A stretch of DNA of 20,229 nt from Sulfurihydrogenibium sp. (lineage in GTDB: Bacteria; Aquificota; Aquificia; Aquificales; Hydrogenothermaceae), in NCBI GenBank assembly GCA_037442825.1, contig JBBIPN010000017.1, positions 1-20,229 of the forward strand, in the 5' to 3' direction. Under the pieces are notes generated by a model. The model made no database searches and was not told the DNA's origin. It saw only the letters and a list, made by a program, of their open reading frames with translations. The position numbers were made by a program, and so were the translations under genes. Within the stretch, counting starts at the first letter, position 1, and each line of letters starts with the position of its first letter. Of the stretch, positions 9,590-20,229 are shown piece by piece.

Positions 9590-11125
9590 GTGTTAAAAGT
9601 AAAAAATAAAAAGTACAAATCTACATTAAAACGAATAAAAATAGATATTTATAACATATTAGAAAATGAAAGAAGTCCTCTTAACCATATATACAGTATA
9701 ATTGCTATAATATTAGTAATAGCATCTTCAATGACTATACTTTTTCTCTTTACACCACAAAGGGAAAATTTACCTCCTGATTTATATACTTTTTTAAAAA
9801 ATTTCGAAGAGATTAGCTTAATATTTTTCTTAGTAGAATACATCCTTAGATGGTGGGTAATATCAGACTTTTTAGATGACTTTAAAAGCTACGTTAATCA
9901 ACATGAAACAAAAAATACAAAAGTTTATATTAAAGGGATTTTAAAAGCGTTAGAAGTTAAGTTTAGATGGATGATAAAACCATATTCAATAATAGATTTT
10001 CTTGCAATTTTACCTATAATTAGACCTTTAAGGTTGTTAAGAATATTTCAGATTATTAGAATTTTTAAATTAATCAGATATTCTAATGTGTTTAAAAACA
10101 TAATTAAAGCTTTTAAAGAGCAGTGGTTTATTTTCTTATTTTCTTTTCTGATGATATTTCTTAATATATTTGTTCTTTCATTGATTACGTATGTATATGA
10201 ATACAATGAAAATAACAAAGAATTTTCTTCTCTATGGATTGCTATCTACTGGGGTATTATTACATCTTTTACTGTTGGCTATGGAGATATTGTTCCTATA
10301 TCAGAAGTAGGTAGGATGTGTGCCTCTATAATGACTATATTAAATATTATATTTATCTCTATTCTTACTGCTGGATTTTCAGCATCTTTTATAAATAAAC
10401 TATTAGAATTAAAGGAAGGAGGGATAAAAATGAAAGATTTAAAAGATCATATAGTAATCTGTGGTTACAATGAAACATCAGAAGAGATTCTTAAAAAGAT
10501 TATGGAAAACAATATAGACAAAGAAAAGCCAGTAGTTTTAATTACAAATGTAAACAAAAAAGATCTTGGAATAGAATTATCTAAATACATAATCTACAAA
10601 AGAGGAGATTTCATAATAGAGAATAATCTTTTAGACATAGCTATAGAGAAAGCTTCTGATGTTATCATAGTAGGTGAAAAGCTTGCAAATTTAAATGAAA
10701 GGGATACAGATGCACGAACAGCTTTAGCTGGGATGTTAATAAAAACATTAAATCCAAATTGTAAATTGTATGTAGAAGTTTTACTTGATGAAGATGCTGA
10801 AATATTTAAAAAACGTATAAAAGCAAGAGAAGTTTTAATACATGGTCAAATTTTAGGTAAAATACTATTTTCAAGTATACTAAATCCAGGAAATACAAAC
10901 TTAATAGAAACATTAATAAATATAGAAACAGGAATAAGGAAGATAAAAGTTAAAGAGTTGGGGAATGTTAAAAATTTTAAAGAAGTTTTTTTTGATGCAA
11001 GAAAATTAGGATTTTTGCCTATTGCTTTAGAAAGAAATAGAAAGATAATATTAAATCCACCTGATGATTTTGAGATTCTTGAAAATGATTATATATTCCT
11101 TATTCCAAAAGGTGATATTTCATGA
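9590..11125 (+). CDS. 6TM (voltage-sensor-type) potassium channel with C-terminal RCK/TrkA-N domain
   Basis: S2 EYILRWW, S3 IIDFLAILP, S4 RPLRLLRIFQIIRIFKLIR, selectivity filter TVGYGD and RCK start DHIVICGYN. The GTG start has a weak RBS, so the exact start is uncertain. Confidence 0.92.
   Translation: MLKVKNKKYKSTLKRIKIDIYNILENERSPLNHIYSIIAIILVIASSMTILFLFTPQRENLPPDLYTFLKNFEEISLIFFLVEYILRWWVISDFLDDFKSYVNQHETKNTKVYIKGILKALEVKFRWMIKPYSIIDFLAILPIIRPLRLLRIFQIIRIFKLIRYSNVFKNIIKAFKEQWFIFLFSFLMIFLNIFVLSLITYVYEYNENNKEFSSLWIAIYWGIITSFTVGYGDIVPISEVGRMCASIMTILNIIFISILTAGFSASFINKLLELKEGGIKMKDLKDHIVICGYNETSEEILKKIMENNIDKEKPVVLITNVNKKDLGIELSKYIIYKRGDFIIENNLLDIAIEKASDVIIVGEKLANLNERDTDARTALAGMLIKTLNPNCKLYVEVLLDEDAEIFKKRIKAREVLIHGQILGKILFSSILNPGNTNLIETLINIETGIRKIKVKELGNVKNFKEVFFDARKLGFLPIALERNRKIILNPPDDFEILENDYIFLIPKGDIS
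10417..10432 (+). promoter_or_regulatory. Internal ribosome-binding site and in-frame ATG (Met281) at the start of the RCK domain
   Basis: AGGAGG at 10417-10422, 7-nt spacer, ATG at 10430, in frame with 9590. Confidence 0.65.
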
Positions 11126-11838
11126 AAAATATTTTAATTACAAGAGAAAAAAATCAGTTTGAAGAAATAAAGAAACTATTTGAAAAAGAAGGTTTTAATC
11201 CTATCCCTTTTCCAACAATAAAGTTCGAAGAAGTTGAAAATAATATTAATGTTAATGAGTATGATTGTTTAATATTTACTAGCAAAAACGCAGTTATTTT
11301 CTTTTTAAAGAAAAATCAAAATATAAATAATAAAAAAATAGTAGCTGTAGGTGAAAAAACAGCTCAATTATTGGAAAACTATGGTTTTAAAGATATTCTC
11401 TTTCCAGAAAATTTCAGTGGAGAAAGTTTGCTAGAGTTTTTAAAGAGTAATAAACATGAATTTATAAATAAAAAAATTGGTTTAGTTAGAGCTTTAGAAG
11501 GTAGCGATGTACTTCTTAATCAAAAAGAGTTTAAAGTTGACCTTATAACTGTATACAAAACTGATTTTAACATACCAGAAAATGTAAATACAGTTAAAGA
11601 TATGTTTAAAAATGGATTGATATATGCAGTAATTTTTTCAAGTCCTTCTACATTTGAAGGTTTCTTAAGAATATTTAAAGAAGAGACTAAAAATCTTTTA
11701 TCAAAAACAAAAGTTATAGCCATTGGAAAAACAACAGAAAAGTTCATCATTTCAAAAGGTTTTAATGTAAATTTTACTCCTAAAAAGTATACATTTGAAG
11801 AAATTGCAAAAAACTTAAAAACTCTCAACAACACCTAA
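11122..11838 (+). CDS. hemD: Uroporphyrinogen-III synthase
   Basis: ILITRE, IFTSKNAV, AVGEKTA, P..FSGESL, VYKT, FSSPST and AIGKTT. RBS AAGGTGA and ATGA overlap. Confidence 0.9.
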   Translation: MKNILITREKNQFEEIKKLFEKEGFNPIPFPTIKFEEVENNINVNEYDCLIFTSKNAVIFFLKKNQNINNKKIVAVGEKTAQLLENYGFKDILFPENFSGESLLEFLKSNKHEFINKKIGLVRALEGSDVLLNQKEFKVDLITVYKTDFNIPENVNTVKDMFKNGLIYAVIFSSPSTFEGFLRIFKEETKNLLSKTKVIAIGKTTEKFIISKGFNVNFTPKKYTFEEIAKNLKTLNNT

Positions 11839-12597
11839 AATTATACCGACTAAAAATCCAATAATAGCTCCGTTTAATCTAATCCATTGAAGTTCTTGCC
11901 ATGTTAGCTTTTTAACAGTGTTTAAAAACTCTTTATCAGATATAGATTTTATTTTATTCTCTATAGATAAAACTATACTATTGTAGTTATCTAAAATAAG
12001 TTTTGATATCTTTTCTTTTAATGTTTTATTTATATTCTCTTTAATATTTTCATCACCATCTAGCTTTTCAAAAACTTTTTCAATAATATCTGGAACAGCT
12101 TCTTTAAAATACTTTAAGAGAATATTGATTAAAATATCTTTAACAGAAATTTTTATAAATGATCCAAAAGGAAGCTCTTTGTATAAATCTTTAAATTCTT
12201 TTTTATCTGAGATACTTTTACTTATAATTTCTAGCAAAAACTCTGCAAATCTTTCCTTTGTTTTTTCATTTTTTAAGTTATCTAAAATATTTGTTAAATC
12301 TATTTTCTCAAGTTCTTTTTCTAAAAACTCTTTACTTATTAAAAACTCAGAAGCAAACTTTATTATCCTTTCTTCAATACTTTTTCTTTTATTTAAGATT
12401 AAATTTGTATGGGGACCTATTTTATAAAAAAGTCCATAAACAGCATAAGAATCCGCTATAAAACCTATTAAAGATGCTTCTAATCCATACTTTAAAACTT
12501 TAAAAAATATATAACTATCTAAATTTAGATAGCAAATTAAGATTACTAAAATTAAAACAACACAAAAAGATAAGTTTAGTATTTTCTCTAAATACAT
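11815..12597 (-). CDS. DUF445-family membrane-anchored protein
   Basis: N-terminal EASLIGFIADSYAVYGLF and C-terminal ELQWIRLNGAIIGFLVG resemble the conserved termini of DUF445. Confidence 0.75.
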   Translation of the reverse strand: MYLEKILNLSFCVVLILVILICYLNLDSYIFFKVLKYGLEASLIGFIADSYAVYGLFYKIGPHTNLILNKRKSIEERIIKFASEFLISKEFLEKELEKIDLTNILDNLKNEKTKERFAEFLLEIISKSISDKKEFKDLYKELPFGSFIKISVKDILINILLKYFKEAVPDIIEKVFEKLDGDENIKENINKTLKEKISKLILDNYNSIVLSIENKIKSISDKEFLNTVKKLTWQELQWIRLNGAIIGFLVGIILGVVESF

Positions 12598-14621: not shown

Positions 14622-16904
14622 TTAGAAAGATTCTCTTAATCTTTTAGCTACCTTTACCATGTTTTTTAATGCTGGTATAGTCTCTTTCCAATCTCTTGTT
14701 TTTAACCCACAATCTGGATTAACCCATATTAGATTTTTATCTATATATTTTAAAGAACGTTTTACTATTTCTTCTATTTCTTCTTCTTTTGGTATCCTTG
14801 GAGAATGTATATCATAAACACCTATACCTATTCCATGGTCATATTTAAATTTTTCAAATGCCAAAAGTATTTCTCCTTTACTTCTTGAAGCTTCAATAGA
14901 TATAACATCTGCATCCATTTTATGTATATACTCTATAATATCATTAAAATCTGAGTAACACATATGTGTGTGTATCTGTGTTTCTTCCTTCACCGTATTA
15001 TGGGTAAGTTTAAATGATTTAACTGCCCAGTTTAAATAATAAGCTTGTTTAGATTTTTTAAGTGGTAAACCTTCTCTAAATGCTGGTTCATCTATCTGAA
15101 TAATTTTAATTCCAGCTTTTTCTAAATCTAAAACCTCTTCTCTTAAGGCTAAAGCTATCTGGTATGCTATGTATTCTTTTTGTATGTCTTTTCTATAAAA
15201 AGACCAGTTTAATATGGTTACTGGTCCTGTTAACATTCCTTTAACTGGTTTGTTGGTTAAACTTTGGGCAAAAGTTATCTCTTTTAATGTCATTGGTTCT
15301 GGTCTTGATACATCACCATAAATTATTGGTGGTCTTACACATCTTGAGCCATAAGATTGTACCCACCCATTTTTTGTAAATGCAAAACCTTTAAGTTTTT
15401 CACCAAAAAATTCAACCATATCTGTTCTTTCAAATTCTCCATGAACTAAAACATCTAAACCTATTTCTTCTTGTATTTTTATAACATTTCTTATCTGTTC
15501 TTTTATAAACGAGTCATACTCTTGTTTTGATATTCTACCTGCTTTAAAATCTGCTCTTTTCTTTCTAATTTCTTGAGTCTGTGGAAAACTTCCTATTGTA
15601 GTTGTAGGTAAAATTGGAAGTTTGAGAATTTCCATCTGTTTTTTATACCTTGTTTGAAAATCAAAACTTCTAGAAATATCTATATTTTTATATTCTTCTA
15701 CCAATTTTCTAACATTATCATCTTTCTTAGATTCAAAGAATCTATCAAGATTATAGTTAGGTAAAATAAAATCTTTCTCAAAGAAATCTTTTAACTGCTT
15801 TAATTCATCAAGTCTCTCATCTGCAAAAGAAAGAACATTAATTAAATCTTCTGGTAAATGCTCTTTTTCAAACTTTACTGTTATTGGAAGATGAAAAAGT
15901 GGAGAAGCATTTGAAAGTATTATATTTTCTTCTTTTGTATACTTTGTTAGGTCTTTAATAAGATTTACTGTCTGTTTTAAATCAGTTTTCCAAGGGTCTC
16001 TTCCAGATACAACACCAGCAAATAAAACCTTATCTGAAGGAAAACCATACCTTTTGATATTCTCAAAGTTTTCATTGTTAGATACAAAATCTAAACCTAT
16101 CCCATAAACAGGAAGGTTTACTAAACTATCATAAGCCGATAAACTTTCATAATAAGTTTGAACTATTACCTTTAGACTTTTCAATCCATCTACAACTTTT
16201 TTATAAATTTGATTTATAAGGTCTATTTCCTTTTCTCTTAAATCTAATACAAAAGCTGGTTCATCTAACTGGACATACTCTACTCCTTCTTTCTCAAGTT
16301 CTAATAAAACTTGATTGTAAAGTTTAGCAAATATGTCTAAAAATCCTTCAAACTTTTCACTTTCATTAGCTTTTACCATTTCCATTAAGAAAGTATTACT
16401 TTGTTTTTGATAAACTTTTGAAATATAAACAAATGTAAAAGGTCCTACTAAAACAGGTTTAGATTTTATATTAAAGTTTTCCTTAACATATCTAAAAGAT
16501 TCTAATGGTCTATTTTTAACAAGTTTAATATCTCCTGAAAGTTCTGGCACTATGTAATGGTAGTTTGTATCAAACCATTTTGTCATCTCACAAGCAATAG
16601 CTTCATCTGTACCTCTTGCCATAGCAAAATACTGACCTAAACTATCTTGAATATTTTTAAATCTTTCTGGTATTACATTAAACATAGTAGCCACATCTAA
16701 AACAAAATCATAAAGTGAAAAATCATTTGAAGGAACAATATCAACACCTTTTTCTATCATCTTTTTTATTCGCTCATCATTTATTGCTCTAACTTGATTT
16801 AAAAACTCTTCTTTTGTAACAGCTTTTTTCCAGTAAGATTCTAAAGCTTTTTTTAACTCTCTGTTTGGCCCTATTTTTGGATAGCCATAAACTGTTGTTT
16901 TCAT
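14622..16904 (-). CDS. metE: Cobalamin-independent methionine synthase
   Basis: Full double-barrel MetE: GYPKIGPNRELK, EMTKWFDTNYHY, PTTTIGSFPQT, HGEFERTDMVEFF, WVQSYGSRCVRPP, and Zn ligands in HTHMC, IE and NPDCGLKTR. Confidence 0.98.
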   Translation of the reverse strand: MKTTVYGYPKIGPNRELKKALESYWKKAVTKEEFLNQVRAINDERIKKMIEKGVDIVPSNDFSLYDFVLDVATMFNVIPERFKNIQDSLGQYFAMARGTDEAIACEMTKWFDTNYHYIVPELSGDIKLVKNRPLESFRYVKENFNIKSKPVLVGPFTFVYISKVYQKQSNTFLMEMVKANESEKFEGFLDIFAKLYNQVLLELEKEGVEYVQLDEPAFVLDLREKEIDLINQIYKKVVDGLKSLKVIVQTYYESLSAYDSLVNLPVYGIGLDFVSNNENFENIKRYGFPSDKVLFAGVVSGRDPWKTDLKQTVNLIKDLTKYTKEENIILSNASPLFHLPITVKFEKEHLPEDLINVLSFADERLDELKQLKDFFEKDFILPNYNLDRFFESKKDDNVRKLVEEYKNIDISRSFDFQTRYKKQMEILKLPILPTTTIGSFPQTQEIRKKRADFKAGRISKQEYDSFIKEQIRNVIKIQEEIGLDVLVHGEFERTDMVEFFGEKLKGFAFTKNGWVQSYGSRCVRPPIIYGDVSRPEPMTLKEITFAQSLTNKPVKGMLTGPVTILNWSFYRKDIQKEYIAYQIALALREEVLDLEKAGIKIIQIDEPAFREGLPLKKSKQAYYLNWAVKSFKLTHNTVKEETQIHTHMCYSDFNDIIEYIHKMDADVISIEASRSKGEILLAFEKFKYDHGIGIGVYDIHSPRIPKEEEIEEIVKRSLKYIDKNLIWVNPDCGLKTRDWKETIPALKNMVKVAKRLRESF

Positions 16905-16916
16905 ACAAAAACCTCC

Positions 16917-16951
16917 TGCAAATGAAAATTATTTGCAATTATATTAACATA
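16917..16951 (-). promoter_or_regulatory. Promoter/operator cassette copy 1 (metE): extended -10 TGtTAATAT plus palindromic operator between the -10 and the RBS
   Basis: tgcaaatgaaaattatttgcaattatattaacata is 33/35 identical to 19835-19869 and abuts the AGGAGG RBS of metE. Confidence 0.85.
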
Positions 16952-16961
16952 TAAAAATTTC

Positions 16962-16982
16962 AAATGCAAACTATTTGCATTT
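16962..16982. promoter_or_regulatory. Perfect 9-3-9 palindromic operator AAATGCAAA-CTA-TTTGCATTT (Fur-family-type box)
   Basis: Exact inverted repeat in the metE/regulator divergent intergenic region. Shares the TGCAAA/TTTGCA half-sites with both 35-bp cassettes. Confidence 0.8.
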
Positions 16983-17009
16983 ATAGAAAAATGGGAAATA
17001 TTATACCTA

Positions 17010-17018
17010 TGCTATAAT
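17010..17018 (+). promoter_or_regulatory. Putative extended -10 promoter of the Fur-family gene
   Basis: TGcTATAAT (consensus), 25 nt upstream of the ATG at 17044. AAGGAG RBS at 17037-17042. Confidence 0.55.
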
Positions 17019-17043
17019 AGTTGTTATCAAAAGGATAAGGAGA

Positions 17044-17457
17044 ATGATGGAAAGTTTAAAAATACCTGAAGGTTATAAAATTACAAAACAGAGAAAAGCT
17101 ATTTTAGAAGTTTTAGAGTATTTTGAAACACCGGTCCATGCAGAGGATATATTTTTAAAACTTAAAGACCTTGGAATGGATATAAGTTTATCTACAATAT
17201 ATAGAAATCTTGATATGCTTCAGAAACAAGGTTTAGTAGTTAAAGCTTATATGTTAAATGAAGATAAAGCACGTTTTGGTTTAAGTTCTAAAAAAAATTA
17301 TCTTGTTTGTCAAGAGTGTAAAAAGATAGTAATCATTGATAACTGTCCTTTTGAAAAATTTAAAGAAGAACTTATAGAAGTTCACGGTTTTGACATTTTA
17401 GGTCATAGTATTGAAGTTTATGGGATATGCCCAGATTGTAAAAACAAATTAAAATAA
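17044..17457 (+). CDS. Fur-family transcriptional regulator, atypical (Zur-like scaffold lacking the His cluster)
   Basis: KITKQRKAIL, AEDI, ISLSTIYRNL, CxxC (C89/C92) and GHSIEVYGICPDC. The true start may be the second ATG (17047), given RBS spacing. Confidence 0.92.
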   Translation: MMESLKIPEGYKITKQRKAILEVLEYFETPVHAEDIFLKLKDLGMDISLSTIYRNLDMLQKQGLVVKAYMLNEDKARFGLSSKKNYLVCQECKKIVIIDNCPFEKFKEELIEVHGFDILGHSIEVYGICPDCKNKLK

Positions 17458-18024
17458 TCTAAATCTTTCCCTTTTATTAAAAGCTAGCATAAGAAATGTT
17501 ATAACAGTTATTTGAATAAAAAATAGTAAAAAGTGTATATAAAAAACTTTAAGTTGATTAGATGTGATATAAAAAATTATCTCTATTAATTTATAAAATC
17601 CATAAGATAAAACTAAACCAATTAAATAACCAGCTTGTTTGACTATATCAAGTACTGAGAGAAGTTTTTTGTATCTCAATATTATTGTTTCTGTTCTAAC
17701 AAGGTAAGAGCCAAATAAAAATGTAATCTGATAACCACTGTATATACATAATGCTGTAGTGTATGAAAAAGGTTTTAAAAGAAAAAAAACTACTATAAAT
17801 AACATAATCATCTCAACAAATAAAGATATCCTAAAAAACATTTTTCTATTCATTATCTTTTCATAAAACTTTGCTATCACCATACTACCTAAAGCCAACA
17901 AAATACCACCAACAGAAAAAATAGAGGGACTTAAAGGTTGGTATAATGTAAAAACAGAACCTATAGAAAGCCCTGCAAAAATCGAGTTAAAAAATTTATA
18001 ACTAAAGTAGTATTTAACCTTCAT
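17449..18024 (-). CDS. Uncharacterised integral membrane protein (about 6 hydrophobic segments), coupled to the TonB-dependent receptor gene
   Basis: 191-aa hydrophobic ORF starting 2 nt after the receptor stop codon. No family recognised with confidence. Confidence 0.8.
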   Translation of the reverse strand: MKVKYYFSYKFFNSIFAGLSIGSVFTLYQPLSPSIFSVGGILLALGSMVIAKFYEKIMNRKMFFRISLFVEMIMLFIVVFFLLKPFSYTTALCIYSGYQITFLFGSYLVRTETIILRYKKLLSVLDIVKQAGYLIGLVLSYGFYKLIEIIFYITSNQLKVFYIHFLLFFIQITVITFLMLAFNKRERFRLF

Positions 18025-18026
18025 AA

Positions 18027-19823
18027 CTAAAACTTTCCAGTAATACCAGCATATACAGACCTACCAAAAGAAGCATAACCATAAACAGTTTGATAGTATT
18101 TATTTGTTAAATTATCAACTTTTAAATAACCAGAAATATATTTACTTAAATCAATATTAAAAATAACATTTAGTAAAGTATAAAATCCTGTTTGTTTATT
18201 ATTTGAATCTTTTTTATTTCCGATATATTCACCGTTTAAAACTATATTTAAATTATCAACTGGAAAAAGAGAAATATTAAAATCTATCTTCTCTTTAGGT
18301 CTCCTTGGTAAATCTTTATCGTCTTTATCTTTTGCTGAAAGATTTGTATAACTTAAATAGATACTTGATTTTAATGATTTTAAATCTTTTTTATAAGAAA
18401 GTTCTATACCTTTTATAGTTGAGGTCCCCACAATGTTAGCATAACGGAATGTTAATAAATCAAAATCTATCAAATTATTAATTTTATATTTAAAAAATGT
18501 TAAATTAAAACCAAATAAATTTACTCCAATATCATAGTTTTTAGAATCTTCAGGGTTTAAATTTTTATTCCCAAAAATACTATAAAGTTGGTACATTGTT
18601 GGAATGTTATAGGATGTTCCATAGTTTGCATACAGATCTATATCTTCTTTTATGATATACTTCCCACCAATTTTGTATGTAGATTTATCTGAGAAACTAC
18701 TGTAGTTATCATATCTTACTGTCTGAGATAATATGATACTGCTAAATTTATTTACATTTGTAAAGTAGTAACCTGTATCATGGTACCTTCCAGTCACATT
18801 ACTATCAGACTCTTTAAAATCTTGTCTAACCAATCCATAAACGATAAATGAATCTTTAAGGTAGTTCCAGTTACCTCTAAATCCAAACTCAGTTAAATTT
18901 CCTTTATAACTATAATTTGGATTCCATCCTGTTGGTTCATAGTATGACCTATCAAAATCAGAAAGGTTACTATAAAGTTGTAATTCATGTTTACCTATGG
19001 TCTTTTTATATTGAAAGTTGTAAAATTTTTGATTTATATGTGCCTTATTATTTGCATCTGCAGGTTGCCATGTAATACTATCAAAACCATCATAATTAAC
19101 AATAGCATCAATAAACTTCATTGAAGTTTCAAATCTATCCCTTTCTGTAATATTTAAACCAATTTTTAAATTCACAGTATCATTTTTATATTTATCAGAC
19201 TCCATGTTTAAATCTTTCCATCTTTTACCATAAGGTTCAGCAGCAGATATAGAATAACTATCAAATCTGTGTAATCCAAATAATAAATCTATTTTATCAT
19301 TAGCTAAAGTAATTGTAGTACCGTACTTTTTTGTAGTATAACTTCCATATTCAAAATAAGCGTTTAAATGGATACCTTTTTTTGGTTTTTTAGTGATTAT
19401 ATTGATAACACCAGCAGAAGCATCTGGACCCCAAACACCAGATTGACTACCTTTAATAACTTCTATTTGTTCAATATCTGAAATTAATATATGCTCCAAC
19501 ATAGCTCCATTTAAACCAGTTATATCGTTTAACCTTATTCCATCTAACATAATTAAAGTTCTTTTAGGATCCATACCTCTTAAATAAACAGATGTTGGTT
19601 GACCATATCCACCATTTGATGAAAAAGATACACTTGAAAGTTTATTTATAACATCTATCAATATAGTAGCTTTTAGATCTTTTATCTCATCTTCTTTAAT
19701 AATATTTACAGAAGATGTTGAGTATTTAATTTCTGTTGACGTGTTATAAACAGAAAATAGTTTTAAAGACTCTTCTGCAGATGCAAAGCCAACAACTAAA
19801 CCTACAACAGCTAACCTTTTCAT
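18027..19823 (-). CDS. btuB: TonB-dependent outer-membrane receptor, BtuB (cobalamin transporter)-like
   Basis: Signal peptide; plug NGGYGQPTSVYLRG...LIMLDGIRLN...IEVIKG..S.VWG.DA..GVINIIT; barrel YGTSY..PT..QLY...GN.NL.PE.S, LPRRPK, NL..K.YQTVYGY...GR and terminal Phe. These segments and the ~600-aa size resemble E. coli BtuB as I recall it. The substrate is an inference. Confidence 0.75.
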   Translation of the reverse strand: MKRLAVVGLVVGFASAEESLKLFSVYNTSTEIKYSTSSVNIIKEDEIKDLKATILIDVINKLSSVSFSSNGGYGQPTSVYLRGMDPKRTLIMLDGIRLNDITGLNGAMLEHILISDIEQIEVIKGSQSGVWGPDASAGVINIITKKPKKGIHLNAYFEYGSYTTKKYGTTITLANDKIDLLFGLHRFDSYSISAAEPYGKRWKDLNMESDKYKNDTVNLKIGLNITERDRFETSMKFIDAIVNYDGFDSITWQPADANNKAHINQKFYNFQYKKTIGKHELQLYSNLSDFDRSYYEPTGWNPNYSYKGNLTEFGFRGNWNYLKDSFIVYGLVRQDFKESDSNVTGRYHDTGYYFTNVNKFSSIILSQTVRYDNYSSFSDKSTYKIGGKYIIKEDIDLYANYGTSYNIPTMYQLYSIFGNKNLNPEDSKNYDIGVNLFGFNLTFFKYKINNLIDFDLLTFRYANIVGTSTIKGIELSYKKDLKSLKSSIYLSYTNLSAKDKDDKDLPRRPKEKIDFNISLFPVDNLNIVLNGEYIGNKKDSNNKQTGFYTLLNVIFNIDLSKYISGYLKVDNLTNKYYQTVYGYASFGRSVYAGITGKF

Positions 19824-19834
19824 TTATCCTCCAA

Positions 19835-19869
19835 TGCAAATAAAAATTATTTGCAATTATTTTAACATA
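19835..19869 (-). promoter_or_regulatory. Promoter/operator cassette copy 2 (btuB-like operon): extended -10 TGtTAAAAT plus perfect palindrome TGCAAATAA-AAA-TTATTTGCA
   Basis: tgcaaataaaaattatttgcaattattttaacata is 33/35 identical to 16917-16951 and lies 2 nt from the GGAGG RBS. Confidence 0.85.
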
Positions 19870-19972: not shown

Positions 19973-20107
19973 ATGAAAAAAGCACTTTTTTTGGCAGCAA
20001 TTCTATCGTTGAATCTCTTAGCTAGTGGAGAGGAGGTTTTAAAGTTAGAAAAAATTCAGTTTACTGCTACAAAGTCAGAAAGACCAGAGAAAGAAACGCC
20101 AGTTTAG
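19973..20107 (+). pseudogene. Truncated TonB-dependent receptor N-terminus (44 aa: signal peptide plus TonB-box region)
   Basis: AGGAGG RBS at 19961-19966. Translation MKKALFLAAILSLNLLASGEEVLKLEKIQFTATKSERPEKETPV*. LEKIQFTATKSE...ETP matches the usual L-E-x-I-x-V-T-A-T-R/K-x-E...P pattern at the start of TBDRs. Confidence 0.7.
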
Positions 20108-20229
20108 CTATAGTTGTTTCTTTTATTTTTAGAAATGGTGATTACTGTAAATATATTTGTCCTATCGGAGCTATTAACACAGCTTTTAACAGAGTAGGTT
20201 TTACTTGGTTATCTACAAATCAAGAAGAT
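20101..20229 (+). pseudogene. Start-less internal fragment of a membrane-bound 4Fe-4S-binding protein (NapH/MauN/CcoG-type CxxxCP motif), running off the window
   Basis: Translation SLAIVVSFIFRNGDYCKYICPIGAINTAFNRVGFTWLSTNQED. In-frame TAG at 20023-20025 and no ATG/GTG/TTG before the motif. Confidence 0.65.

Follow-up and report, generated by a model that had tools for sequence, protein, structure and literature searches.

A DNA operator shared by metE and a likely vitamin B12 import operon, probably bound by a Fur-family protein, in the hot-spring bacterium Sulfurihydrogenibium sp.

Introduction

Regulators of the Fur family are the textbook bacterial sensors of metal ions or peroxide. The genes with which we are concerned here have been placed under quite different regulators in the closest described systems: according to PMC3228920, MetJ with S-adenosylmethionine (SAM) represses btuB in about one third of the gammaproteobacteria studied, as verified in Yersinia, and PMC3274233 describes the repression of metE by vitamin B12 in E. 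coli and Salmonella as indirect, through a lowering of homocysteine. Here we analyze a stretch of 20,229 nucleotides from a hot-spring bacterium, a Sulfurihydrogenibium sp. of the family Hydrogenothermaceae (NCBI GenBank assembly GCA_037442825.1, contig JBBIPN010000017.1; referred to below, at its full length, as the window), in which metE and an operon likely to import B12 lie on either side of a gene for a Fur-family protein and share one DNA operator that this protein probably binds. We describe the operator, its targets in related genomes and the properties of the candidate regulator, and we put forward a mechanism in which the signal is drawn from the methionine cycle.

Results

Three copies of one operator in the window

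The window is the whole of one contig (C17) of an assembly of 1.35 Mb in 137 contigs (29% G+C, 99% complete; G000 or the source genome below), and the named relatives of its proteins come from Sulfurihydrogenibium, Persephonella and other Hydrogenothermaceae. The metE gene (14622..16904, minus strand) encodes a cobalamin-independent methionine synthase of 760 amino acids (aa) that matches TIGR01371 at 1037.7 bits (cut-off 929.95) and also PF01717 and PF08267. Beside it on the plus strand lies the gene of a 137-aa Fur-family paralog (P0001, 17044..17457; PF01475 at 88.4 bits), the candidate repressor, which we refer to as the regulator. Beyond this gene, again on the minus strand, a 598-aa TonB-dependent receptor (18027..19823), whose best models are two BtuB equivalogs, is followed by a 191-aa membrane protein with six transmembrane helices, here called MEM (17449..18024), a candidate inner-membrane B12 transporter from its genomic context and a structural model. 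Gene order and profile matches agree with an earlier note on this DNA, which had seen metE and a BtuB-like receptor operon flanking a Fur-family gene.

A repeat search of the window gave one 35-nt repeat family with three copies. Relative to the copy at 16917-16951 upstream of metE, the copy of the receptor operon (19835-19869) is identical at 33 of 35 positions (94%), and a third copy between metE and the Fur gene (16959-16993) is 77% identical; the first two are the cassettes that had been noted earlier directly upstream of the ribosome-binding sites (RBSs) of metE and the receptor gene, and the third was absent from that account. On the minus strand the two near-identical cassettes consist of a TG-n-TAnAAT extended -10 element, three bases and a palindrome, followed by a GGAGG RBS, such that each cassette apparently combines an extended -10 element with an operator resembling a Fur box. 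At up to three mismatches the 21-nt core of the cassette matches only three places in the 20.2-kb window, which makes four matches with one site counted on both strands, where 0.02 were expected and none of 100 shuffles gave four or more. A weight matrix built from 55 distinct sites of relatives only was then applied to the complete source genome, and the three window sites ranked first (27.0, 24.8, and 17.4 bits), the fourth-ranked match (16.1 bits) lying inside a RecJ-like open reading frame (ORF).

The top-scoring site in the genome, the distal operator (16959..16985, 27.0 bits), has as its core the 7-1-7 inverted repeat TGCAAACTATTTGCA at 16965-16979 and shares bases with a -35-like hexamer, TTGCAT, of metE (minus strand, 16964-16969). 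About 30 nt downstream of it, on the plus strand, is the putative extended -10 element of the regulator gene (TGcTATAAT, 17010..17018, read by eye), and for this reason the distal operator is likely to be an autoregulatory site. The proximal metE operator (16917..16937, 24.8 bits) comprises a 7-1-7 box at 16923-16937, in which there is a single mismatch, together with an additional TGCAAA hexamer, and is positioned between the RBS of metE and its putative extended -10 element (TG-T-TAATAT, 16941..16949, minus strand), covering the likely +1. The operator of the receptor operon (19835..19855, 17.4 bits) lies immediately 5' of the RBS, and the putative extended -10 element of this operon is TG-T-TAAAAT (19859..19867, minus strand). 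These two -10 elements were also read by eye, and they are conserved in relatives, that of metE in its position. The proximal sites of the window are slightly degenerate in that the middle hexamer has decayed, and hence they read as TGCAAAT-N7-ATTTGCA. The earlier placing of -10 elements about 35 nt from the start codons is matched by the TGn-TAnAAT pattern at these two positions but gains no support from a generic sigma-70 scan, which did not rise above chance in such AT-rich DNA (2 matches where 1.6 were expected, and 4 where the expectation was 1.5).

No cobalamin or SAM-I riboswitch detected in the locus or the family

We considered a riboswitch or other leader RNA as the controlling element and rejected it on the basis of Rfam scans. 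A permissive scan of the window (E ≤10) gave five weak and unrelated matches, none of them a riboswitch and none in either upstream region. The cobalamin riboswitch (RF00174) was found neither in the source genome nor in any of 31 family genomes, an even sample of the Hydrogenothermaceae, and the SAM-I riboswitch (RF00162) likewise in 0/31, the search for other classes responding to SAM or S-adenosylhomocysteine (SAH) covering the window only. A role of the palindrome at the RNA level was also rejected, because the distal metE boxes, and the boxes of metF described below, lie upstream of the -10 element and are not transcribed. The proposal that metE and the BtuB-like operon form a riboswitch-free regulon under a shared DNA operator, with neither a cobalamin nor a SAM riboswitch upstream, is thus upheld.

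The operator and its targets across the Hydrogenothermaceae

Orthologous loci of relatives give TGCAAATnATTTGCA, a palindrome of the 7-1-7 type, as the operator consensus. It often lies within the longer palindrome tTCAAATGCAAATnATTTGCATTTGAa, and in promoter-proximal boxes TGCAAATnATTTGCA is followed by one more TTTGCA hexamer, a layout that recalls the three-hexamer classical Fur box. Both the 7-1-7 and the hexamer-array architecture are typical of the Fur family from work on B. subtilis, where the heptamers are TGATAAT for Fur, TTATAAT for PerR, and TCGTAAT for Zur, and in its form and its placement at promoters the operator described here appears to be of this kind. At up to one mismatch the 7-1-7 box occurs in 27 of the 31 genomes, with 1 to 8 copies per genome, and a reversed pattern used as the control gave no more than one match on either strand in the same 31; the box adjoins the regulator gene in relatives. 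The motif conservation that the earlier note had asked about therefore extends across the family.

When the ORFs beside boxes were annotated in 40 regions, the boxes proved to lie upstream of metE, the receptor/MEM operon, metF, the regulator gene itself and, once, metH, that is, upstream of genes of methionine synthesis and the methyl cycle (metE in all, metF in 8 genomes, metH in 1) and of B12 import. There are two boxes about 42 bp apart at metE in 15 genomes and the distal box alone in 9, and in the two-box promoters the distal box covers the TTGCAT -35-like hexamer while the proximal box directly follows the -10 element. Upstream of the receptor/MEM operon, a box with up to two mismatches is positioned just before the RBS in 13/13 of the relatives' upstream regions shown, also in genomes in which operon and regulator are not linked, and in three genera it takes the variant form TGCAAAATATTTGCA. 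The metF gene, for methylenetetrahydrofolate reductase, has a box at the -35 position in 8 genomes of three genera, and metH is boxed in a single genome (G020), by a perfect box overlapping a -35-like hexamer. No zinc, iron, siderophore, metal-transporter or peroxide-defense genes lie beside boxes in the annotated regions. In the source genome, where a scan with the motif had been suggested earlier, only the three window sites score; no box is present at its own metF or at the locus of the B12-related genes nrdJ and btuR.

Several observations on individual genomes accompany this survey. In G004 (L082:7034-8707, 11029-11847) the two boxes lie upstream of a 558-aa ORF without a family, which precedes metE and heads the same boxed operon, and in both G004 and G008 (L098:2476-3264) metE is followed by an ORF of 263-273 aa that also has no family. 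The metF promoters of six loci in three genera (L052, L053, L055, L057, L072, and L077) have a TATACT -10 element 6-7 nt before the ATG and no RBS, so that the metF mRNAs of these genera look leaderless. A box-like sequence, TGCAAATTAATTGCAtttgca, is found in G047 (L089:3984, L090:3966, L091:3991) within a dispersed repeat that is 160 nt long or more and of which three copies were inspected; five sites in this genome carry the TGCAAATTAATTGCAtttgca variant, and neither methionine genes nor an array of clustered regularly interspaced short palindromic repeats adjoin or lie near them. These five identical variant sites were set aside, as were box-like matches inside ORFs (G000 C41, G020 C25, and G045 C1) and two box-like sites by an actin-like gene on a second replicon of G050.

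The adjacent Fur paralog as the candidate binder

Orthologs of the regulator, at 65-99% identity, are found solely in the Hydrogenothermaceae, the next matches being generic Fur proteins of other phyla at 40%. A search of 41 genomes recovered it in 21 of 25 genomes of the family, one of them with a partial copy at a contig end, and gave nothing above 35% identity in 16 genomes of two sister families. In the even sample it is present in 24/31 genomes, and it was not detected in the other seven. Four (G012, G016, G024, and G046) have no box at up to one mismatch, and two (G017 and G048) have a single box, which in both is unannotated and does not lie upstream of metE; the metE upstream regions of G012, G016, G017, and G024 are short and contain no box. 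In the seventh, G047, the regulator was not found, yet there are 8 boxes, including two at metE, and since this assembly is 83% complete and has those two metE boxes the gene was probably not assembled. The two other Fur paralogs of the source genome (C20 and C79) also occur in regulator-less genomes and therefore are not the binders.

Given the Fur-type 7-1-7 architecture of the boxes, the box upstream of the regulator's own gene and the way in which boxes track the regulator across genomes, the adjacent Fur paralog is most likely the binder and by far the best candidate for it, in keeping with the earlier suggestion that it was the simplest choice. A different factor might bind the boxes, with the Fur paralog merely adjoining them, and in one genome (G022) the regulator is indeed apart from metE with no strict box beside it. 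We see only a very small chance of this, however, as the 7-1-7 and hexamer-array layout points to a Fur-family protein, the presence of boxes follows that of the regulator in the 31 genomes, and in G020 the regulator's upstream region is boxed although its divergent neighbor is metH instead of metE. In the public sources that give these proteins a name, they are just 'Fur family transcriptional regulator' or 'transcriptional repressor'.

The receptor/MEM operon and the use of B12

The receptor scores below the cut-offs of the two BtuB equivalogs (228.9 bits against 599.7 for TIGR01779, and 224.5 against 836 for NF007926), with both models well above a siderophore model (135 bits). E. coli BtuB is its only full-length match in the PDB (1e-41, residues 40-589), and the next matches, at 3e-13 or weaker, are partial and nearly all confined to the plug domain. 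Hence BtuB is the closest characterized relative over plug and barrel, and the receptor has genomic links to B12: of the 31 genomes, 17 have MEM and 18 have metH, and the two sets coincide except in G047 (17/18 against 0/13). The full-length match and this co-occurrence support the earlier assignment of the receptor as BtuB-like rather than of the siderophore type, and because MEM co-occurs with metH in this manner the receptor/MEM operon is likely a B12 importer.

MEM itself has no match in Pfam or NCBIfam in a profile search, no PDB chain at E ≤10 with a profile of seven orthologs, and only unnamed clusters in the protein atlas. Its predicted structure (predicted local distance difference test score, pLDDT, 94) has six helices, and its best Foldseek matches are halves of transporters of the major facilitator superfamily (MFS), at E 0.05 or weaker. 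We considered whether MEM is BtuM, an S-component of the energy-coupling factor (ECF) type, and rejected this, there being no sequence match and a fold that resembles half an MFS protein. Outside the family, homologs of MEM occur in Campylobacterota and Flavobacteriales, and MEM is thus an unannotated family of these two groups and the Hydrogenothermaceae (loci L105-L169); two sequences were left aside, L070:5932-6444, which is not homologous, in aligning MEM, and L164 because of an in-frame stop. A homolog of the window receptor lies directly upstream at 32/65 of the MEM homolog loci and metH within 3 kb at 9, and in Campylobacterota both metH and btuR adjoin MEM, one Hydrogenimonas locus having the order metH, DUF4139, btuR, MEM. 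Rfam detects a cobalamin riboswitch at 4/40 loci, in each case on the MEM strand and 200-285 nt downstream of the gene, and all four loci are from Flavobacteriales. From this genomic context and the structural model, MEM is a candidate for a new kind of half-MFS-like inner-membrane B12 transporter. At the one such flavobacterial locus that was annotated (L163:3828-6362), the riboswitch after MEM heads two genes for proteins sorted by the type IX secretion system and without known function, which may bind B12 at the surface.

The source genome has no match to the B12-synthesis markers CobS and CbiD and no permease of the FecCD/BtuC type. It does contain metH, the B12-dependent class II ribonucleotide reductase NrdJ (707 bits, C51:4986-7696) and btuR beside nrdJ, and from this genomic context the organism seems to scavenge B12 and is likely a B12 auxotroph. 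Its metH is spread over three contigs (C13, C102, and C136) as a 991-aa copy at a contig end and two fragments, which points either to a second metH gene or to an assembly that mixes strains.

Loss of the canonical metal-sensing site from the regulator

The regulator is a Fur-family protein by its match to PF01475 (cut-off 23.1 bits, residues 9-126) and by its best PDB relatives, which are structures of Fur, PerR, and Zur, but it falls below every NCBIfam cut-off for Fur, PerR, Zur, and Irr. Specifically, it scores 74.2 bits against 180 for PerR, 71.2 against 220, 65.9 against 146, and 58.9 against 200 for the Fur models, and 37.5 against 167 for the Zur equivalog NF008646. The Cys4 structural site is retained, with C89/C92 and C129/C132 invariant in 23 orthologs; also invariant are an extra cysteine, C100 in the motif DNCPF, and H121, whereas H114 is usually kept and H32 is not conserved. 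To map the regulatory ligands, we aligned the protein with HMMER to Fur and PerR proteins of known structure, with V. cholerae Fur (2w57) as the reference. H33 of the latter is replaced by Pro, E81 by Gly, H87/H88 by Lys or a gap, D89 by Asn and H90 by Tyr, and only H125 is kept, as H121, so that five of the six readable canonical ligand positions are lost. The loss is also evident in the segment before the first CxxC, which is SKKNYLVC in the regulator and EHHDHLLC and EKHFHLKC in the two same-genome Fur paralogs, which keep HHDH or HxH. On the alignments, then, the regulator retains the structural zinc site and lacks the canonical regulatory metal ligands, and because of this loss its signal is probably no metal ion.

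The regulator might nevertheless be a sensor of Zn, Fe, Mn, Co or Ni by means of C100, H114, H121 or the Cys4 site, as its family membership and the conserved extra cysteine and two histidines would allow, and MetE is a zinc enzyme by the title of a reference in PMC3274233. We regard this as quite unlikely in view of the missing ligands, the absence of boxes from metal-transporter, siderophore, and zinc-uptake genes, the resemblance of the receptor to BtuB, the tracking of metH by MEM, and the presence in the genome of two other, canonical-looking Fur paralogs. Two narrower forms of the idea were rejected. A Zur reading fails on the NF008646 score, far below its cut-off, on the unboxed zinc-uptake genes, and on the BtuB-like receptor and the MEM-metH association, and the doubt that had been raised earlier about ordinary Zur logic was well placed. 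Cobalt sensing would be without purpose in a genome with no match to either of the two B12-synthesis markers, and this part of the earlier list of possible signals (cobalamin, cobalt or a methionine-cycle signal) is dropped.

It is also conceivable that the regulator is a thiol or redox sensor, with oxidation of C100 or the Cys4 site releasing the repressor so that MetE is replaced under oxidizing conditions. MetE is known to be oxidation-sensitive in E. coli, C100 is invariant, and the best NCBIfam match of the regulator is the PerR model, even if that match, at 74 bits against 180, is far below the cut-off. This seems to us less probable still than metal sensing: peroxide-defense genes carry no boxes, His/Asp ligands of the PerR type are absent, and B12 import together with metF does not resemble a redox regulon.

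The signal: methionine-cycle metabolite or B12

With a metal ion improbable as the signal, the content of the regulon, namely the step from homocysteine to methionine plus B12 import, leads us to propose a methionine-cycle metabolite as the signal. The obvious competitor is B12 itself, which could bind the Fur paralog as a co-repressor and make it the protein equivalent of a cobalamin riboswitch: with B12 present, metE, metF, and uptake would be off and MetH would take over. The regulon core of metE and the BtuB-like/MEM importer is what such a circuit would need, the cobalamin riboswitch was found in none of the 31 genomes, and the source genome has MetH, NrdJ, and BtuR with no CobS or CbiD match. 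Invariant C100 and H121, with the usually kept H114, are possible corrin ligands, and in E. coli, PMC3274233 reports, B12 does lower metE, indirectly via MetH and homocysteine/MetR.

The distribution of the regulator speaks differently. Seven of the 13 genomes that lack both metH and MEM, from four genera (G003, G005, G013, G021, G042, G043, and G049), have retained both the distal metE box and a regulator that is intact, and BtuR is absent in 4/4 of those tested. Between such genomes the regulator has a nonsynonymous divergence (dN) of 0.09-0.13 with synonymous divergence (dS) saturated, and a dN/dS of 0.05 in the one estimable pair. The regulator is thus under strong purifying selection without metH, importer or BtuR. 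In such genomes B12 would be neither taken up through this system nor used by MetH, and since selection of this kind cannot be upheld by a co-repressor absent from the cell, this favors a methionine-cycle signal over B12. Moreover, B12 as a co-repressor that shuts off metH, as the box in G020 would require, is illogical; metF is boxed and the B12-dependent nrdJ-btuR locus is not; and the regulator has no recognized B12-binding domain (PF02310/PF02607), matching only FUR and, below threshold, PadR. Of the signals listed earlier, B12 is accordingly disfavored, and we judge it unlikely, if well worth keeping in mind, while a methionine-cycle signal fits best.

A number of points nevertheless weigh against our proposal. 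Some concern the signal and lean toward B12: the proximal metE operator is present in 14/15 metH-positive genomes examined and in 0/7 metH-negative ones, the regulator was not found in 6/13 metH-negative and 1/18 metH-positive genomes, and the invariant C100 and H121 could be ligands of corrin cobalt or of a metal. Others concern the regulon, which has a far more limited reach than the regulons of MetJ, SahR or the S-box, as metK and the genes for homoserine acyltransferase, sulfhydrylase, and AhcY have no boxes at the thresholds used. Finally, the Fur paralog is a candidate binder identified from sequence, the promoter elements, with apparent leaders of about 30 nt, come from reading and from fixed-distance conservation in relatives, and the family genomes are kin, so that counts among them overstate independence. 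A methionine-cycle signal would still explain all of the observations on the signal, and we favor it over B12, with a confidence just short of even.

The end of the window

Beyond the receptor operon (19973-20229), a second and divergent TonB-dependent receptor is represented by a stub of 44 codons (19973..20108, plus strand), which is outside the regulon described here. In G007 this receptor is 691 aa long; past base 20102 the window sequence equals sequence about 2.4 kb further along in G007, and the last 127 bases of the window are identical to the start of contig C32. This is either a deletion or an assembly join.

Discussion

We now put forward a hypothetical mechanism for the regulon, which as a whole, with the Fur paralog repressing on a methionine-cycle signal, we advance tentatively and at slightly less than even confidence. 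In this mechanism the Fur paralog would bind the boxes as a dimer or two dimers and block RNA polymerase. In the source organism the repressor would act at the +1 of metE and at the +1 of the receptor/MEM operon, and also at the -35 of metE and at its own promoter; in other genera its site of action would be the -35 of metF and, in one genome, that of metH. We propose that the signal is a metabolite of the methionine cycle, with SAM or methionine as a co-repressor or, alternatively, homocysteine or SAH as an inducer, such that a shortfall of methionine would lead to more MetE and MetF and to more B12 import for MetH.

More broadly, we regard it as evenly balanced whether a Fur protein without metal sensing here binds an organic ligand (SAM, homocysteine, SAH or cobalamin) and takes over, at the DNA level, the role that cobalamin and SAM riboswitches or MetJ have in other bacteria, with MEM pointing to a new kind of B12 transporter of the inner membrane, six-helix and half-MFS-like, in a family that the Hydrogenothermaceae share with Campylobacterota and Flavobacteriales. 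If true, the sensing range of the Fur fold would be widened by a member tied to the choice of methionine synthase and to B12 import, and it would be explained how a bacterial family does without cobalamin and SAM-I riboswitches. It should be noted that the regulon is small and easy to test, as it involves three operators and a single protein of 137 aa, from thermophiles that can be cultivated, and that the MEM family is flagged as a candidate inner-membrane B12 transporter in bacteria without BtuCD. A search of open-access full text, with the subscription literature and regulon databases outside its scope, gave no publication in which metE, metF or btuB is controlled by a Fur-family protein, nor any on regulons of the Hydrogenothermaceae. 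Fold and type of operator are familiar; the new features are the set of target genes, the lost sensor site and a signal that is probably not a metal.

Comparison with known systems

The closest likeness in structure is to Fur, Zur, and PerR. The regulator shares with them the PF01475 domain, the Cys4 site, and a 15-bp 7-1-7 repeat, often with a third hexamer, at -35 or +1, and like them its gene is likely autoregulated. It differs from them in its heptamer, which is TGCAAAT, in the missing regulatory metal ligands and the scores below the equivalog cut-offs, and in having a regulon of methionine synthesis and B12 import instead of metal homeostasis or peroxide defense.

Likewise, the importer resembles BtuB with BtuCDF or BtuM in part only: the receptor is BtuB-like over its full length and has a small membrane protein encoded directly downstream, but there is no permease of the BtuC/FecCD type, and MEM resembles half an MFS protein and not an ECF S-component. 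CarH/LitR offers a precedent for a protein regulator that uses cobalamin, through a DNA-binding domain of the MerR type and a canonical B12-binding domain, whereas the regulator described here has no B12-binding domain. The cobalamin riboswitch has the same targets, metE and btuB, and effects the same switch between MetE and MetH that would be expected in a likely B12 auxotroph; it differs in that RF00174 was not found here, the apparent leaders are about 30 nt, and control would be at the DNA level, with the metF boxes untranscribed.

In the circuit of MetR and homocysteine, as described in PMC3274233, B12 status is read indirectly via a methionine-cycle metabolite, as we propose here, but MetR is an activator of the LysR type and the regulator of the window is a presumed repressor of the Fur type. 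MetJ comes closest in targets, since it acts on metE, metF, sometimes metH, and, in about one third of species according to PMC3228920, btuB, and it is an autoregulated repressor with operators at promoters. MetJ is, however, a ribbon-helix-helix protein unrelated in sequence, it recognizes 8-bp metboxes, and its regulon is broader, including metA, metB, metC, metK, and metNIQ. We propose that the Fur paralog of the Hydrogenothermaceae would be like MetJ, SahR or the S-box riboswitch in function, and homologous to none of them.

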